Of a stretch of 64,000 nucleotides of DNA, positions 4,931 through 32,434 are shown piece after piece. A program made the position numbers and the translations under genes. The stretch's first letter is position 1, and each line of letters begins with the position of its first letter. The stretch spans positions 1-64,000 of the IMG/VR virus record IMGVR_UViG_3300028805_000055; one strand, given 5' to 3'. Source of the DNA: a virus (lineage: Duplodnaviria > Caudoviricetes). Under the pieces are notes generated by a model. That model worked only from the letters and a program-made list of their open reading frames with translations, was not told the DNA's origin and did no database searches.

Positions 4931-7690
4931 TTATTGCCTTATATCATCCGCAGTACCCCTCTGATTATCCATTCCCCTATTGTCGAACTGTAGGTTTCTC
5001 CTAATAAACGGAGTAAACTTATCAAGTGCTCTAATGTAGACAGTGCTCTTCGGCTTCATGGTCATTTCATCCCACTGTACACAGATGCAGTAGTTATATC
5101 CTATGAGATTTGACATCGTTTCGTCATAATAGACCTTGTACAGTCTTCCCATCTTATTGTCTTCCTTCGACTGCATCAGTTTACCATAATTGGCAACAAA
5201 GTTCTTTAATGCATCACGCTCTGCCTTCCACCTCTTCTCGTAAGGGTTTCCTTCAGACGAGCCATCCATTGCAAACTCCTCCTTCAGAACCTTGAGATAC
5301 TTCTTAGTGGATTCAGTAATATCATTAAAATAATTTTTTTTGGATTCGTTCCTATAAATAGGATATGGTTCTTTTACATATTTTCTTGTATCATTATCCC
5401 AATGTCCAGTCATTGGTATATATCCGTTCTTTCCCGTCATTATTTGTTTCCTATATTGCGGTAGATTTTCTGTTGCCCAAAGAGCAATCTCGCTAGGTCT
5501 ACCGCATCTCACAAGAACTTGACCATTTTGTCCATAAACAACCCAATCGCCATTATCTTGGTGAATTGGAATAAAGCTTTTTACATTAGGACCCCAGAAT
5601 ATTACTTGATTTTGATTATCTCCATAATGGTATATTTCTACGCCACTTGTTCTAAATATTACTGCTTCATCCCCATATTCATTATAATCTACCTTTCTAT
5701 CATTAATCAAAAAAGCAAAATTATATCCAGCGTAATGTTTTTGTTGCCCAGCATTAGTATATGCAAGACTTTCAATATCTGGTGTTCCTCCTGTAAATCC
5801 TTCTTTTGCAATTGATTCTGAATCAGAACCAAAATGAATACACCACTCATTTTTTACAATTCTGTTAAAATCCATAGTACACCACGAAGGCAATTCATAA
5901 TAATCCACAATATCTTGCATGATGCTTATAAAATGGCCACATAAATTGTTTTCTTCTAGCATCTTACAAAATGTTTCTACCTTTTCTTCGTTTTCATAAT
6001 CAAACTCACCATCATTTAACAAATTTTCAAATTCTGAATATCTGTAATATATTTCCTTAATATATTCACCTATATAATAAGAACAATAATATGCTAAATC
6101 TCTTGCTTTTTCACAAGAAGATGCCGTAGATGCCCATTTGAAATATTTGTACAATGGCAAATTGTAATCTTTCTCTAGATATTCTTTTATAATTTCTTTA
6201 TTATCGAATTTAGATTCTTCAATTGAATTTAATTTATCATAGCACATAACTTTTAAACGCCATAATTTGTCTAAATAAAATTTTCTCCTAAGTACCTTAT
6301 ACACTATATTTCCCGCACCGTTTTCTCCACGCTTAGTGAGACTCTTCTTTCTCAAGCTCTTTACCTTTTCCCATAGGTAGCTTGCGTCCTCACCAATTTT
6401 ACTTACTTCATATCCGTCATCAGTCGATGACAATGCCTTATACATTTCATCAATGATTGTCATTATCTCAGCCGCCTTGCGTTTAATGTCAAATTTCTCA
6501 AGACCTATGCTCTTAATGGTGTGTGGGTTAGGTCTCCTAATCCACGCATTCTCCTCCAGGTCATATATTCCACCAGCCTCAACATTATCGCTAACATCCT
6601 GTGTATACAACTCAACAGGGAATCCCATTATCTTCAATCCCTCATGCTCTGCATTCCACTCGTTCTTCTTCGAATCGAGATATTGCTTAACAAATTCAGT
6701 TTTGCTGTCAATCTCATTAAAGTCAACTACTAAGTGTAGGTCTATATCTGAGAACTTAGACCAGTTGAAGTTGCATATAGAGCCAGTTATAATGATTTCC
6801 TTTGGTTCAACCCATGTAAGATTAACGAACTTCCAGAAGTCATCTGCAATGTCAAGAAGTTTCAATCTAACCTTTGAGTTAAGTGTCTCTTCATCCTTCC
6901 ATATTCCAGGAGGTAATGTGTCACGCTTCTTGAATGAAGACAGGTCAACTTCTGAAGATTCAACTTCCTTCTCCATATTCTCCTCTACTGGATTTTCGTT
7001 GCCTATATGGGCGTACAGTCCAGGACCTCCTCCCTTTTCCATACCAACACTAGCAACAGGTGCAAACTCCTTAGCCACTTCCTCAGAAAGGAAGCCTTCT
7101 TTACGTACAACTTCCTCACCAAGCATATTAGCCATTATCAATCCGAAATCCTCGTCTCCAACACTCATATATGTATATTCATTTCCAGACATCTCACACC
7201 AGTTATAGAAAATCTCATCCCTTATCCATTCGACAGGATATCTTTCACCCTTACCAATAAGAATTTTATAACAGTTATTGAGACCTTCCCTTGTATGACC
7301 GCAGAAATATTCCACCTTAGGGTTATATCCAGAAATATCAAGACATGAGTCCTTTGATACCACATGAACATTGTTCATCTTATGGAACACAGTATCTAAT
7401 TCTACTTTTGGTACTTCTATTGAGAAACAAGCACCCCTATTGAAACTACCGTCGTTCTCCAGCGAGAACCAATTCATTCCATGAGTTTCACCATGCTGTC
7501 TTCCTTCACTGGCACACACCCTGTTTGTCTTCAATATCTTTACAAGTGCTAATATGTCAGTACCGTGATACAGCTTAACATTACCATAAACGTCATTATG
7601 GCTGACACCATCAGTGCCAACCATAATTTCGTTTAATTTGCCCTTAATTGCTATTAAACCATTCTCGTTAAATCTAATAGTCTTTCCCAT
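4931..7690 (-). CDS. Multi-domain protein: ART-like + Pol-beta-superfamily nucleotidyltransferase + further domains
   Basis: KLYHGTD (ART-like strand 1); ITGSICNFNWSKFSDIDLHLVVD (GS...DxD NTase); third domain WCIHFG...GFTGG...YNFAF. Confidence 0.7.
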   Translation of the reverse strand: MGKTIRFNENGLIAIKGKLNEIMVGTDGVSHNDVYGNVKLYHGTDILALVKILKTNRVCASEGRQHGETHGMNWFSLENDGSFNRGACFSIEVPKVELDTVFHKMNNVHVVSKDSCLDISGYNPKVEYFCGHTREGLNNCYKILIGKGERYPVEWIRDEIFYNWCEMSGNEYTYMSVGDEDFGLIMANMLGEEVVRKEGFLSEEVAKEFAPVASVGMEKGGGPGLYAHIGNENPVEENMEKEVESSEVDLSSFKKRDTLPPGIWKDEETLNSKVRLKLLDIADDFWKFVNLTWVEPKEIIITGSICNFNWSKFSDIDLHLVVDFNEIDSKTEFVKQYLDSKKNEWNAEHEGLKIMGFPVELYTQDVSDNVEAGGIYDLEENAWIRRPNPHTIKSIGLEKFDIKRKAAEIMTIIDEMYKALSSTDDGYEVSKIGEDASYLWEKVKSLRKKSLTKRGENGAGNIVYKVLRRKFYLDKLWRLKVMCYDKLNSIEESKFDNKEIIKEYLEKDYNLPLYKYFKWASTASSCEKARDLAYYCSYYIGEYIKEIYYRYSEFENLLNDGEFDYENEEKVETFCKMLEENNLCGHFISIMQDIVDYYELPSWCTMDFNRIVKNEWCIHFGSDSESIAKEGFTGGTPDIESLAYTNAGQQKHYAGYNFAFLINDRKVDYNEYGDEAVIFRTSGVEIYHYGDNQNQVIFWGPNVKSFIPIHQDNGDWVVYGQNGQVLVRCGRPSEIALWATENLPQYRKQIMTGKNGYIPMTGHWDNDTRKYVKEPYPIYRNESKKNYFNDITESTKKYLKVLKEEFAMDGSSEGNPYEKRWKAERDALKNFVANYGKLMQSKEDNKMGRLYKVYYDETMSNLIGYNYCICVQWDEMTMKPKSTVYIRALDKFTPFIRRNLQFDNRGMDNQRGTADDIRQ

Positions 7691-8116: not shown

Positions 8117-8827
8117 ATGAAAAGAGTAAAAATAACAGAAGTCAAGTTTGTATCACTATTTGGTAATCCTGGAAATGATAATTTTTACCAGGATGGCGAT
8201 TTTTTCGTCACAAATGATAAGATGAATAAAGCTAGAGGGCTGTTTTACCCCTACTACCAAAGCAGATATAATGTCAATAAAGAGAAAATTATACATCAGA
8301 TAGCATTTGCAAAAACAATTAAGATGATTGATAATGGCGAGAAACTTCCAGAATTTGATGATTACAAGATATATCATTCAATAGGTAATATACCATTCTC
8401 AAAAAAACAGGTTGAATATGTTGAAAAAAAAATAAAACCACAGTTTAAGAATATGTCACTTGAAGAATTATACGATTATATGCTTATAGAACAGGAAAGA
8501 AATAACTATGAGATAAATAAGGACTGTAAAAAGGCTATTGCAGACCTTATTGGTAAAGGATTCTTTGATAAGTATCTTAACGGACAGCTTAAACCTTTGG
8601 CTCTTTGGAGTATAGGTAGACTTGATGATATTAATGATATGCTAGTTTGGCTGTACTCTAAGAATAGATTCACAGGAAAACTTAACGTAGAAACTCTTGA
8701 AAAAGAAATGAAAAAGACTCGTGATGAAGTTGTAGATTCTGATGATAAGTTCATGAAAAATCCAATATATTTAGCATTTAATTACATACAAACGTCCATA
8801 TGGAAACTTAATAAAATTCCAAAATAA
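8117..8827 (+). CDS. Hypothetical late protein
   Basis: 236-aa ORF starting MKRVKITE; bidirectional terminator at about 8826-8853. Confidence 0.7.
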   Translation: MKRVKITEVKFVSLFGNPGNDNFYQDGDFFVTNDKMNKARGLFYPYYQSRYNVNKEKIIHQIAFAKTIKMIDNGEKLPEFDDYKIYHSIGNIPFSKKQVEYVEKKIKPQFKNMSLEELYDYMLIEQERNNYEINKDCKKAIADLIGKGFFDKYLNGQLKPLALWSIGRLDDINDMLVWLYSKNRFTGKLNVETLEKEMKKTRDEVVDSDDKFMKNPIYLAFNYIQTSIWKLNKIPK

Positions 8828-28884: not shown

Positions 28885-29745
28885 ATGATTATCGGATTTG
28901 CAGGTAGAATGAGAGGTGGAAAGTCAGAGCTTGCAAAGGTCTGCGAAGACCTTGGGTATAAAAAGCTGTATTTTGCATTACCGCTTAAACAACTCTGTGC
29001 AGACCTCCTGGATATTTCCATCGATGGACTCAACGAAGCAAAAAACAAGGGAATCGATATAGGAATTACAATTGGTGACGATATGTGCGAGATTCTTGCT
29101 GAAGAGACTGAGATACCATTGGATGTCGTAAGGGAGAAGTGTCACGGTAAAGTCATAAACACCGTGAGACAGATGCTTCAGTTCATAGGTACTGACTTAA
29201 TCAGAGAATATAACAAGGATTGGCACGTCAACAGGATACGCGCCATGATAAACCCAAATGAAAATTATGTGATTGATGACGTAAGATTCAAGAATGAGAA
29301 GGAACTCATAGATGAGCTTGGTGGTGACTGCTGGTTTGTCACCAGGACATCACTGGAGAACATATCAAACCATGAGTCGGAGACATCACTTACCTGGCAT
29401 GATTGCTGGAACAGGATTATAATAAATGACAACACGTTACATTATCTATTGTTTAAATGGGGGGCTTTCATGGATAATTATGAAAGGTCTTGCGCCTTTA
29501 GGGATAAAGAGTTTAATAGAATACTGGAAAATGGTACTGAGGGTGAAATAACAAAGATGTCAACCCTTGACATGCTCATGCTATCAAGGGATATGTTCAC
29601 CTACTCACCAATAGAATTTAACAAGGATGCAATAAAGAGTGTAGAAATGCTGGATAATAACGGTGTTAAGATTACATACAACGATGATACATACGAATTT
29701 GTCTATAACGCACTTAACATCGAAGACCTAAAAATGATACTTTAA
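28885..29745 (+). CDS. Deoxynucleoside monophosphate kinase
   Basis: IIGFAGRMRGGKS, FALPLK, RQMLQFIGTD, DDVRFKNE, HESE. Confidence 0.88.
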   Translation: MIIGFAGRMRGGKSELAKVCEDLGYKKLYFALPLKQLCADLLDISIDGLNEAKNKGIDIGITIGDDMCEILAEETEIPLDVVREKCHGKVINTVRQMLQFIGTDLIREYNKDWHVNRIRAMINPNENYVIDDVRFKNEKELIDELGGDCWFVTRTSLENISNHESETSLTWHDCWNRIIINDNTLHYLLFKWGAFMDNYERSCAFRDKEFNRILENGTEGEITKMSTLDMLMLSRDMFTYSPIEFNKDAIKSVEMLDNNGVKITYNDDTYEFVYNALNIEDLKMIL

Positions 29746-29859
29746 CAGACTTTAACCACAATTTTTTGCTTTTTAGGAAAAAAATATATAACTTTGCACA
29801 AAATTTACAATAGACACAATATTTTTGCACCCTAATATCATATTTATATAAAAAGGTAT

Positions 29860-30726
29860 ATGGAATATAAAAGGATATGCAGAATTTGCGGTAAAGAGTT
29901 AAAATATGGGTCTTACTCAGCATATTGGCTTGCTGAGAAAAATAACTCAATATGCAGAAATTGTGCCGCTAGGAATAAAGCTACTAGAAAATGTGATTTA
30001 TCACCATTACTAAATGAAACTCCAGAAGCATATTATTGGATTGGTTTCCTTTTGGCTGATGGTAGTTTTATTGATGGTAGGATTAAATTTCACCTAAAAC
30101 TTGGTGATTCTTCACAGGTAGAAAAGTTTGCTAAATTCATAAATTGGGTTGGTAATTTCGACGATAGAGGAGAACTAGGCATTGGTGTCGCTGCAAAGCA
30201 TACTAGTATTGTTAATGCCTTAGTCAAAAAGTTCGACATTAAGGAGAAAAAGACTTATAATCCTCCAGAAACTATATTAAATCACGACAAAAATTTACTC
30301 AAATATTTAATTGGAGGGTTTATTGATGGTGATGGAAATATTTCAAAGCAAACTGGTAGAAATGATTCATTCATACGAATTAAGCTACATAGTTCCTGGG
30401 AAAAGATACTAAAAGAATTCTGTGAAATCATAGGATATGATAAATCTCACGTAAAAATAAACAATAATGGGTATGCTGAATTAGTTATTTCTGATTCTAG
30501 AGTAATATCCAAGCTTAAAAAAACACTAGTTGATGGAAATATACCACTGTTAGAAAGAAAATGGTCAATCATAGATGATAATTTTATTAGTAGGTATGAA
30601 AAGTCCAAAATAACAAGAGAAAAAGTAATAGAACTATTATGCGAAGGAATGAAAAATAAGGATATAAGCAAGTTACTTTCTATATCACCTTCGTTAGTTA
30701 CAAAAATAAGTAAAAGTTATGAGTGA
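29860..30726 (+). CDS. Free-standing two-motif LAGLIDADG homing endonuclease
   Basis: YWIGFLLADGSF and LIGGFIDGDGNI; N-terminal CxxC...CxxC; C-terminal HTH; AT-rich; overlaps the start of the next gene. Confidence 0.88.
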   Translation: MEYKRICRICGKELKYGSYSAYWLAEKNNSICRNCAARNKATRKCDLSPLLNETPEAYYWIGFLLADGSFIDGRIKFHLKLGDSSQVEKFAKFINWVGNFDDRGELGIGVAAKHTSIVNALVKKFDIKEKKTYNPPETILNHDKNLLKYLIGGFIDGDGNISKQTGRNDSFIRIKLHSSWEKILKEFCEIIGYDKSHVKINNNGYAELVISDSRVISKLKKTLVDGNIPLLERKWSIIDDNFISRYEKSKITREKVIELLCEGMKNKDISKLLSISPSLVTKISKSYE

Positions 30727-31347
30727 TAATATTAAAACAAAATTTGAGAGTGGGTCGGACGTGTTTTTCACGTCCGACACCTAGTGACCCATTTTGGACA
30801 CGCCAATATCATTGGGTTCTGTAACCGCCCGTTCAAGGACGTGGAGGAAATGAACTACAAACTCATTGAGAACTGGAATAAGAAAGTCCCAGTGGATGGT
30901 CTGGTCTTCCATCTTGGGGATTTTGCTTGGGGTGGATACCCATTCTGGAAGAATATCAGAAGTCAACTCAATGGTAGAATTATTCTAATCAAGGGAAACC
31001 ACGATGAGAAGAATATGACACCAACTGCCGAGCAGGAACTATTCGATTATGTAACATTCCAGATGAAGGTGGAAATTGAGGGAAGGAAGGTTTATCTTAA
31101 CCATGTACCATTCCTATGCTATGGAGGTACTTATCGTGACCCGAAGGGGTTGGTATATCAGTTGTTCGGGCACGTCCATTCAGGTCCTGGTGCTAAGGGA
31201 TTGGACATAGACCGATTGAAAATGCTTTTCCCAACGCAATACGATGTAGGGGTTGATAAAAACAATTATGAGCCTGTATCCTGGGCAGAGGTTAATGAAG
31301 CCATAGGAAAACAGTTGCTCAAATCAAAATTTAAAAAAGAAAAATAA
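30719..31347 (+). CDS. Calcineurin-like metallophosphoesterase split by an 8-nt insert (candidate translational bypass), 206 aa if joined
   Basis: ATG 30719 gives MSDNIKTKFESGSDVFFTSDT-stop. Another frame resumes HFGHANII...HLGDF...KGNHD...LNH.P...GHVH. Joining restores FFTSDTHFGH. Confidence 0.85.
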
Positions 31348-31362: not shown

Positions 31363-31734
31363 ATGGCACGAAATGTAAAGCTATCAAGGGTCGCTAAACT
31401 GACATTGCAGTTTATGAAACATAATGGTATATATAGATTATACTACAATGAGTTCAGAACTAACAGGTATAAAAAACCATATTTCTACAAGAAAGATGGA
31501 TATCTGGAATTCCTGCGTGACAGAATAGAGAACGATGGCTGGTTTCTCTGTAACCAGGAAGACAGGGAACTTGATAGTTATTTCATAAGGTATGTTCTTT
31601 TCATGATAAATGAGATTCACATATTACTTGAAAAACCACCAACATATGAGGATATATGTTTCTTCTACGACATGGTAGAGCTATATTTCAAGGAGCACGC
31701 CTTACTTGGAGCAAATGTATTGGTAAATGAGTAA
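31363..31734 (+). CDS. Hypothetical protein
   Basis: 123-aa ORF in operon. Confidence 0.6.
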   Translation: MARNVKLSRVAKLTLQFMKHNGIYRLYYNEFRTNRYKKPYFYKKDGYLEFLRDRIENDGWFLCNQEDRELDSYFIRYVLFMINEIHILLEKPPTYEDICFFYDMVELYFKEHALLGANVLVNE

Positions 31735-32434
31735 AATATTGATAATACCAGACGTACATGGTAGGACGTTCTGGAAAGATGCCGTTGAAAAACATGCTGA
31801 GGAATGCGATAAGATAGTATTCCTTGGGGACTACCTTGACCCATACCCTTGGGAGGGTATTACCAGGAGACAAGCCATCAAGAACTTTGAAGAAATAATA
31901 GACTATAAGGCAGCAAATAAGGATAAGGTAATTCTGCTTCTGGGAAATCACGATATGGAGTACTACGACAATAACTTCAGAACCAGGGTAAGATATGACG
32001 CAAGTCACGCCTATCACATAGCAGAGGATTTTAGGTCTCACAGAAGCTTTTTCCAGCTTGCATATGAGGAAACTATCAATGGTAAGACATATTTATTTAC
32101 ACATGCTGGTGTAACTAAGTCATGGCTGGAGAGATATAAGAACCTTATAGGAGAACCTACTGCCGATAACCTTAATCCGTTGAAAGATATGTCTGCTGGT
32201 GTAGTAAGCCTCACACAGATGTCAAGGTATCGTGCAACATGGGGAGAAAAGGTAGGAAGCATGGTGTGGTCTGACATCAACGAGAAGAAGGAAGATGAAG
32301 ACCTTGATGGCATCTACCAGATATTCGGGCATTCACAGCAGGAGGAGCACCCAGTGATTACGAGAACCTGGGCTTGCCTTGATTGCAGAAAAGCGTTTAT
32401 ACTAACAGAAGATGGAGGATTCCAAGATGTGTAA
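31727..32434 (+). CDS. Metallophosphoesterase
   Basis: PDVHG, LGDYLD, LGNHD, THAG, FGHS. Confidence 0.9.
   Translation: MSKILIIPDVHGRTFWKDAVEKHAEECDKIVFLGDYLDPYPWEGITRRQAIKNFEEIIDYKAANKDKVILLLGNHDMEYYDNNFRTRVRYDASHAYHIAEDFRSHRSFFQLAYEETINGKTYLFTHAGVTKSWLERYKNLIGEPTADNLNPLKDMSAGVVSLTQMSRYRATWGEKVGSMVWSDINEKKEDEDLDGIYQIFGHSQQEEHPVITRTWACLDCRKAFILTEDGGFQDV

Follow-up and report, generated by a model that had tools for sequence, protein, structure and literature searches.

A candidate mobile endonuclease–bypass cassette at the 5′ end of a calcineurin-like phosphoesterase gene in a phage

We analysed 64,000 nucleotides of the genome of a giant Caudoviricetes phage (positions 1 to 64,000 of the IMG/VR record IMGVR_UViG_3300028805_000055; hereafter the window) in which a calcineurin-like phosphoesterase gene is broken near its 5′ end into two open reading frames (ORF1 and ORF2). 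Comparison with related sequences indicates that this arrangement is probably (with a probability of roughly 0.8) a mobile cassette composed of a homing endonuclease gene and a short programmed translational bypass, or "stop-hop", by which ribosomes would pass from one Thr codon over a stop codon to a second Thr codon. Interruptions of this kind were recovered at 36 loci, representing 24 distinct cassettes, in each case at the codon for the Thr of D-T-H; the loci were drawn from independent JGI, ENA, Logan, and IMG/VR assemblies that differ in pipelines and samples. A bypass at this site had been suggested by an earlier sequence-only reading of the window, and the suggestion gained support from the recurrence of the arrangement, codon co-variation, compensatory stem changes, variable gap lengths, and the lack of start codons at most junctions. 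Natural programmed bypassing has long rested on the deeply studied T4 gene 60, the mitochondrial byps, and a few further candidates.

All parts of the interrupted gene lie on the plus strand. ORF1 (30719–30781) has 21 codons from ATG 30719, reads MSDNIKTKFESGSDVFFTSDT, and contributes strand beta-1 as well as the Asp by which motif I binds metal. It ends in ...FFTSD-T, with Thr21 encoded by the take-off codon ACC (30779–30781). The coding gap TAGTG (30782–30786) would place UAG (30782–30784) in the ribosomal A site at take-off and is followed without delay by a second frame-0 stop, TGA (30785–30787). The landing codon ACC (30787–30789) would not be decoded but re-paired by peptidyl-tRNA-Thr, and ORF2 (30790–31347) then begins with CAT, the His codon of the D-x-H motif, followed by TTT GGA CAC, and comprises 185 codons plus TAA (31345–31347). 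The positions given in the sequence-only reading for the ATG, both ACC codons, and the hairpin were all confirmed. Joined, the two ORFs read ...FFTSDTHFGH... and are colinear with 73 uninterrupted relatives and with 1xm7 (Aquifex aq_1665), the nearest solved relative, whose ISDTHFYH spans the junction position when aligned with an uninterrupted homologue. The joined product has 206 aa, compared with 202–206 aa for uninterrupted homologues. ORF2 matches the phosphoesterase family phrog_547 (E 1.4e-42) and, weakly, Pfam Metallophos, with Pfam scores of ORF2 alone below the gathering score. The calcineurin-like motifs GDF, GNHD, and GHVH are intact in ORF2, and D-x-H is whole only across the hop.

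The insert is sporadic among related genes. It is missing, together with the hairpin described below, from 73/73 IMG/VR relatives found by protein, and a junction scan detected it on three JGI metagenome contigs. Protein searches returned gene-caller products of 186 aa (V/M-THFGH...) and 165 aa (MNYKLIENW...) among the 202–206-aa homologues, and the contigs of these shorter products bear the hairpin and ACC-TAGTG-ACY. More diverged IMG/VR cassettes were recovered with coding-based patterns (FFTSDT followed by a stop) that did not require a hairpin. The exact window junction was not found in other IMG/VR records, in which the relatives have different gaps, and no near-identical phage records were found. 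These comparisons rule out both misassembly and a mutation private to the phage as the origin of the insert. The expectation of the sequence-only reading that gap-less alleles would occur alongside gap-containing alleles keeping matched codons, stop, and hairpin was borne out by 24 interrupted cassettes and at least 42 uninterrupted alleles. Pattern matches without a phosphoesterase were dropped as chance hits, namely L106 (a metagenome-assembled genome, for which about four chance matches are expected), L108, L109, L111–113, L115, L116, L119, L121–125, L127, L129, L130, and L132–134; L089/P0019 (186 aa) proved to be a short contig, rearranged or chimeric, that has no cassette. Public gene calls for the interrupted alleles are truncated, either to 186 aa (GTG start) or to 164–165 aa (internal ATG), as looked up for P0023, P0024, P0028, P0046, P0083, P0095, P0105, P0108, and P0109 and inferred from length for P0047. 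Some are named "calcineurin-like phosphoesterase family protein", and ORF1 is unannotated in the gene calls examined.

The junctions form a natural variant series of 15 take-off/gap/landing types, with hops of 5, 6, 8, 9, 12, and 14 nt and gaps of 2–11 nt. The 8-nt hops comprise ACC-TAGTG followed by ACC, ACT, or GCC (the window and others; GCC in L078 only), ACC-TAGGT-ACT (L102, L103), ACC-TAGTA-ACC (L104), ACC-TAGGC-ACT (L105), and ACG-TAGTT-ACG (L110). Hops of 5 nt were found as ACC-TA-ACT (L114, L118, L131), where the stop TAA overlaps the landing codon, and as ACT-TA-ACT (L120, L128), and hops of 6 nt as ACC-TAG-ACT (L100), ACT-TGA-ACT (L126), and ACG-TGA-ACT (L117). Longer hops are ACC-TAGGTG-ACC (9 nt, L099), ACC-TAGGTAGGA-ACT (12 nt, L101), and ACC-TAGGTTAGGTA-ACT (14 nt, L107). 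A stop codon (TAG, TAA, or TGA) immediately follows the take-off codon in 36/36 loci. Since in-frame hops (6, 9, and 12 nt) coexist with out-of-frame hops (5, 8, and 14 nt), a fixed frameshift is not the common mechanism. Take-off and landing codons can be read by one tRNA in 13/15 types (ACC/ACC, ACC/ACT, ACT/ACT, or ACG/ACG), and they co-vary across types (ACG/ACG, ACT/ACT, ACC/ACY), as has also been described for homologues of the T4 gene 60 cassette (10.1101/2022.08.31.505936). The longer gaps contain no premature Thr triplet. A start codon (ATG, GTG, or TTG) in the landing frame occurs only in the GTG-containing gaps TAGTG and TAGGTG; most types thus have no start codon at the junction, and reinitiation is not the general mechanism.

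Directly upstream of the take-off codon, the window encodes an RNA hairpin (30752–30781) with a perfect 10-bp stem, GTCGGACGTG/CACGTCCGAC (30754–30763/30769–30778), and the loop TTTTT. The stem abuts the first ACC and is extended in the predicted fold by two pairs into the take-off codon (G30752–C30781 and G30753–C30780), giving a local hairpin of −20.3 kcal/mol. Four separate perfect short-loop hairpins of at least 10 bp (five overlapping hits) were found in the window against 0.7 expected. The one at the take-off site is the GC-richest of the four, in agreement with its description as GC-rich from the sequence alone; the window has just three more perfect 10-bp inverted repeats with short loops, at 8827, 9960, and 32587, all of them AT-richer. 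A chance origin of the arrangement is excluded, given this count and the finding of the same architecture at 35 other loci. No cassette lacks the hairpin, not even those caught by patterns without this requirement, and it occurs in 0/42 distinct uninterrupted alleles. For the 48-nt stretch that ends at the Thr codon, the minimum free energy ranges from −14.4 to −23.7 kcal/mol in the 24 interrupted alleles and from −0.5 to −9.6 kcal/mol in the 42 uninterrupted ones, with no overlap.

Base pairing within the stem is maintained despite sequence change. Across 13 window-type sequences, 156/156 pair cells are paired, with two compensatory double changes and one A-U/G-U exchange, and across 19 distinct hairpins of standard geometry the count is 189/190. 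The double changes among these 19 are CG 10/GC 9, GC 10/CG 9, and GC 17/AU 2, and the single change is AU 10/GU 9; controls with slid arms reached 25–50% pairing for these 19 and 25–51% over the two sets. An equivalent stem is kept in L117 and L120, where its loop has 11 and 18 nt. All stem changes are either synonymous (TCG/TCC, ACG/ACC, GTG/GTA, TTC/TTT) or affect residue 14, which is variable, and VFFTSDT is never altered; protein and RNA are therefore co-selected in frame 0. The G-U pairs on the sense strand favour an RNA structure over a DNA cruciform.

Selection on the encoded protein was assessed by the ratio of non-synonymous to synonymous substitution rates (dN/dS). For ORF2, the median dN/dS among interrupted alleles is 0.048, with dS near 1.5, and the frame is intact, with 177–208 codons, at every locus where the sequence extends to its stop. 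Such purifying selection is what the sequence-only reading had named as support for a bypass; that reading had also noted the intact downstream motifs. ORF1 is open in all cassettes and starts with an ATG 19–24 codons before the take-off codon, a range that includes one in-frame length difference. Its dN/dS of 0.83 carries no information, as synonymous change is held down by the hairpin. Purifying selection on ORF2 and an ORF1 that is always open indicate that both halves are needed and exclude a dead gene. A second calcineurin-like phosphoesterase (31727–32434, 235 aa, PF00149 1.7e-11) is encoded about 400 nt downstream. Between the two genes lies a 123-aa ORF (31363–31734) with no family match that is present in some relatives and missing from others.

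The other component of the cassette is a LAGLIDADG homing endonuclease gene (29860–30726, plus strand) immediately upstream, whose TGA stop overlaps the phosphoesterase ATG. The 288-aa product has a C-terminal helix-turn-helix (HTH) domain and matches PF00961 (3e-05, 25.3 bits at a cut-off of 23.1), HTH_23, and the endonuclease family phrog_4645 (1.4e-16); LAGLIDADG motifs are recognizable in its translation as LLADGSF and GFIDGDGN. A sequence search returned no solved relative, and the phage record holds no second copy. The gene is placed between the phosphoesterase ATG and a promoter-like motif, TATATAACTTTGCAC (29785–29799, plus strand), which resembles a Bacteroidota-type −7 element and is a putative promoter; in endonuclease-free alleles (L001, L005, L090, and others) this motif directly precedes the phosphoesterase ATG. 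The promoter-like TAnnTTTG motif and rumen-type sample names are the only pointers to the putative Bacteroidales host.

In the window and at seven other loci, the interrupted allele has a LAGLIDADG gene immediately upstream; four of these loci (L087, L093, L095, and L096) have orthologues with 74–95% identity, and L105, L128, and L131 have more distant genes at the same position. At L105 (1182–2114), the LAGLIDADG ORF has no stop of its own and continues in frame through ORF1 to end at the TAG of the hop, so that this endonuclease would have the 21-residue ORF1 peptide as a C-terminal tail. Upstream of the L103 cassette (ACC-TAGGT-ACT), a GIY-YIG endonuclease (6317–7099, minus strand) replaces the LAGLIDADG gene. 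The encoded phosphoesterase is the same at L086 and L087, and the two loci are told apart by the endonuclease, with an indel that extends from just past the promoter to about codon 4 of ORF1. At L075, the final 33 nt of an endonuclease gene have survived its deletion; both cases show that endonucleases were lost while the hop was kept. On a tree of the gene body, with the state of P0047 inferred from length only, the interrupted state requires at least 10 changes, at least six of which are forced by well-supported branches. The window and the uninterrupted L090 are 94% identical in the dNMP kinase gene (DNMK), 94% in the phosphoesterase body, and 98% in the second phosphoesterase, whereas the first ~100 nt of the phosphoesterase gene are unalignable and identity returns about 35 nt past the landing codon. 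This local divergence amid near-identical flanks marks a co-conversion tract, so that the stretch 30719–30822, strongly diverged from this nearest uninterrupted allele, is cassette-derived. The endonuclease, which the sequence-only reading does not mention, is integral to the element. Adjacency, mosaic spread, and presence/absence polymorphism were all observed, as in a homing-endonuclease self-immunity cassette, in which the enzyme would cleave uninterrupted alleles only. Distant LAGLIDADG genes (54–56% identical to that of the window) also occur upstream of two uninterrupted alleles, L004 (245–1081) and L007 (1950–2795), in which the motif I codons are heavily substituted (FVSDT/FISDT, AGT for Ser). 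These substitutions may represent an alternative, substitution-based immunity.

In the mechanism that we propose, the ribosome would read ORF1 up to Thr21 (ACC), whereupon UAG would enter the A site. Peptidyl-tRNA-Thr (anticodon GGU) would then detach from ACC and remain in the P site while the mRNA slides by 8 nt, re-pair with the second ACC, and allow decoding to restart at CAT, yielding one 206-aa enzyme with the junction peptide VFFTSDTHFGHANIIGFCNR. The phage record encodes tRNA-Thr with the anticodons GGU, CGU, and UGU. At take-off, the 3′ arm of the hairpin (−1 to −10) and the loop would lie within the ribosome and the 5′ arm (−16 to −25) outside. Each exiting base would be captured by pairing, creating a forward bias of up to about the length of the stem, which would fit the observed hop lengths; pairing of the exiting mRNA has likewise been proposed to drive forward movement on gene 60 (10.1101/2024.12.09.627546). 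By analogy with MobA, the insert and the recoded stem codons would destroy the endonuclease target, rendering carriers immune while the enzyme is still made.

Several observations weigh against this interpretation. ORF1, at only about 21 codons, is not long enough to give a nascent-peptide signal of the T4 type within the exit tunnel, so that take-off would rest on the stop and the hairpin alone. The hairpin loop lies about 11–15 nt 5′ of the P site at take-off, and nucleation of the stem would thus need some initial movement of the mRNA. Landing codons are imperfect in L078 (ACC to GCC, with a G-U pair at position 1 for anticodon GGU) and L117 (ACG to ACT), and the L098 stem has one C-C mismatch. 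In the window itself, the gap TAGTG creates an overlapping stop-start, uaGUG. The cassettes may also share ancestry, in which case their counts overstate the number of independent events. We lean slightly towards a more far-reaching proposal, namely that a module of about 35 nt (a 10-bp hairpin, a Thr codon, a stop, 0–8 spacer bases, and a second Thr codon) suffices by itself for an efficient hop, with neither a nascent-peptide signal nor a Shine-Dalgarno (SD) sequence, driven by re-zipping of the mRNA behind the ribosome, and that at least two endonuclease families adopted it as a translation-level substitute for an intron.

The stop-start overlap makes reinitiation the main residual rival for the window allele. 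Here, ribosomes would terminate at UAG and restart at the overlapping GUG (30784), so that a 21-aa peptide and a 187-aa fragment would be made separately and form the active enzyme as a non-covalent complex. TAGTG is an exact stop-start overlap, the TAGGTG gap of L099 retains the GTG, both ORFs are conserved, and Thr or Ala as second residue would permit removal of the initiator Met. Reinitiation nevertheless appears unlikely, as 13/15 gap types, among them ACC-TAG-ACT, ACC-TA-ACT, and those with TAGGT, TAGTA, TAGGC, or TAGTT, offer no start in the landing frame. It also leaves the duplicated, co-varying Thr codons and the conserved hairpin unexplained, and would place the break inside the D-x-H metal loop without the extension tails that characterize known endonuclease-split phage enzymes (10.1101/2022.08.31.505936). 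We consider it quite improbable that the gap is instead lost from the RNA, either cut out exactly by some activity or left out when RNA polymerase skips template bases under the nascent hairpin's influence, so that the mature mRNA would be colinear with the protein. A conserved sense-strand hairpin directly 5′ of the gap would suit such a process, and deleting the gap plus one Thr codon restores the frame in every variant. The requirement for a stop after the first Thr codon and for a pair of Thr codons readable by one tRNA would, however, have no reason under RNA-level removal, and we know of no bacterial or phage activity that excises 5–14 nt, which we count against it. Nor is there an intron signature in the window: a search against Rfam at E ≤ 1 across 29700–31000 gave no match, and hence no group I or II intron core, although a group I intron was detectable in the same gene of L107, which served as positive control.

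An inactivating scar, left in a dispensable enzyme by selection for protection from the endonuclease and resulting in a truncated, inactive, or missing product, is very improbable. The endonuclease adjoins the gene and a second phosphoesterase is encoded 400 nt downstream, as such a scenario would have it; ORF2, however, has remained under strong constraint over a dS of ~1.5 and is intact wherever its stop is reached, ORF1 is always open and in register, and the compensatory changes spare the protein. Least credible of all is a programmed −1/+2 frameshift or readthrough of the stop, for example by a phage tRNA with anticodon CUA. In its favour, the window has ORF2 in the −1 frame and a mildly slippery loop (GTG TTT TTC), and the phage record has a CUA tRNA. 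No single shift fits hops both in and out of frame, though, and the structure is upstream of the presumed shift site; a −1 shift in the loop would moreover change TSD to HVR and lose the metal-binding Asp. Readthrough would meet the frame-0 TGA at once, and in the in-frame variants would add 2–4 residues inside D-x-H. Transcriptional slippage at the T5 loop was rejected on two grounds, the shortness of the run and the loss of TSD from the product. Recoding of TGA in this phage was rejected as well, as the ORFs with 7–15 in-frame TGA codons (121–129 kb) are shadow frames of standard minus-strand genes. The phage record beyond the window (64–154 kb) encodes 16 tRNAs and a tmRNA, among them the tRNA with the amber-suppressor anticodon CUA (141718–141804). 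Late in infection, this suppressor tRNA could vie with the hop at UAG.

The proposed mobile bypass cassette has its closest parallel in T4 gene 60 and the adjacent mobA, where a mobile cassette carries an insert that guards against self-cleavage (10.1101/2022.08.31.505936). Homologues of that cassette have lost or swapped their endonucleases while the bypass was kept, and they tolerate wobble-matched codons; the Asp before the take-off residue of gene 60 weakens release-factor action (10.1101/2022.08.31.505936). The window and its relatives share with gene 60 a stop directly after take-off, a matched or wobble-matched landing codon, and an Asp before the take-off residue. In both systems, the interrupted site is a metal-binding motif of an enzyme, the endonuclease gene is directly upstream of the interrupted ORF, the endonuclease is lost or exchanged for another family with the bypass kept, and the cassette is scattered over the host-gene tree. 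The T4 system interrupts the Toprim motif of the topoisomerase II large subunit with a gap of ~50 nt, has a take-off stem-loop with GGA-UAG, and is paired with MobA, an HNH endonuclease. The window cassette differs in its phosphoesterase host gene, its LAGLIDADG partner, its 5-nt gap (2–11 nt in the series), and the position of its stem. We identified no conserved mini-SD in the gaps, which were inspected by eye only. The cassette works like mobA/gene 60 but is not a member of that family, and the two have no sequence homology.

The features of bypass elements as a class are nonetheless present, comprising two ORFs that together encode a colinear protein, codon pairs readable by one tRNA, a stop in the A site, and a conserved structure with a presumed stimulatory role. 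Our literature search returned no published report that links bypassing to a phosphoesterase. The Magnusiomyces mitochondrial byps and candidate bypasses in Streptomyces phage terminases reportedly comprise multiple natural elements with matched or near-matched codons, and byps are said to act as mobile inserts; their gaps are reported to span 27–55 nt, with the stem-loop inside the gap and no endonuclease partner. In Escherichia coli reporters, tRNAs make short hops of a few nt over a stop onto a nearby cognate codon, as low-efficiency laboratory events with no dedicated stimulator. Unlike these, the arrangement in the window is natural, conserved, under selection, and accompanied by a co-varying hairpin. 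Group I introns with a LAGLIDADG gene solve the same problem, the survival of a gene whose catalytic motif has been invaded, by RNA splicing; the window insert, in contrast, is 8 nt long, belongs to no Rfam family, and would have to be skipped in translation. L107 (7508–9176; IMG/VR 3300001476_000005) combines both. Its phosphoesterase gene has the 14-nt hop cassette in motif I and an insertion of ~1.15 kb after the GNH of motif III (GNH|D), which includes a 258-aa LAGLIDADG ORF and matches the group I intron family RF00028 (E 8.6e-10, 44.6 bits, just below the gathering score of 50). Intron and hop cassette here answer the same problem within one gene.

The cassette described here bears on what drives the forward movement in bypassing and on why such elements exist. 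It would be a second, non-homologous combination of endonuclease and bypass, far smaller than that of T4, and adds weight to the idea that bypass elements arise in evolution to give homing endonucleases self-immunity. It comes with a ready natural mutant series of 2–11-nt gaps, three stops, three Thr codons, compensated stems, and loops of 5, 11, and 18 nt, with which the proposal that pairing of mRNA on the exit side drives movement can be tested in a simple reporter. A practical effect is already visible, as hop genes have been called as truncations of 165 or 186 aa; if the more far-reaching proposal of a self-sufficient module is correct, gene callers would systematically mis-annotate stop-hop genes as truncated, and short stop-hops may be a general, overlooked means by which phages tolerate insertions in catalytic motifs.

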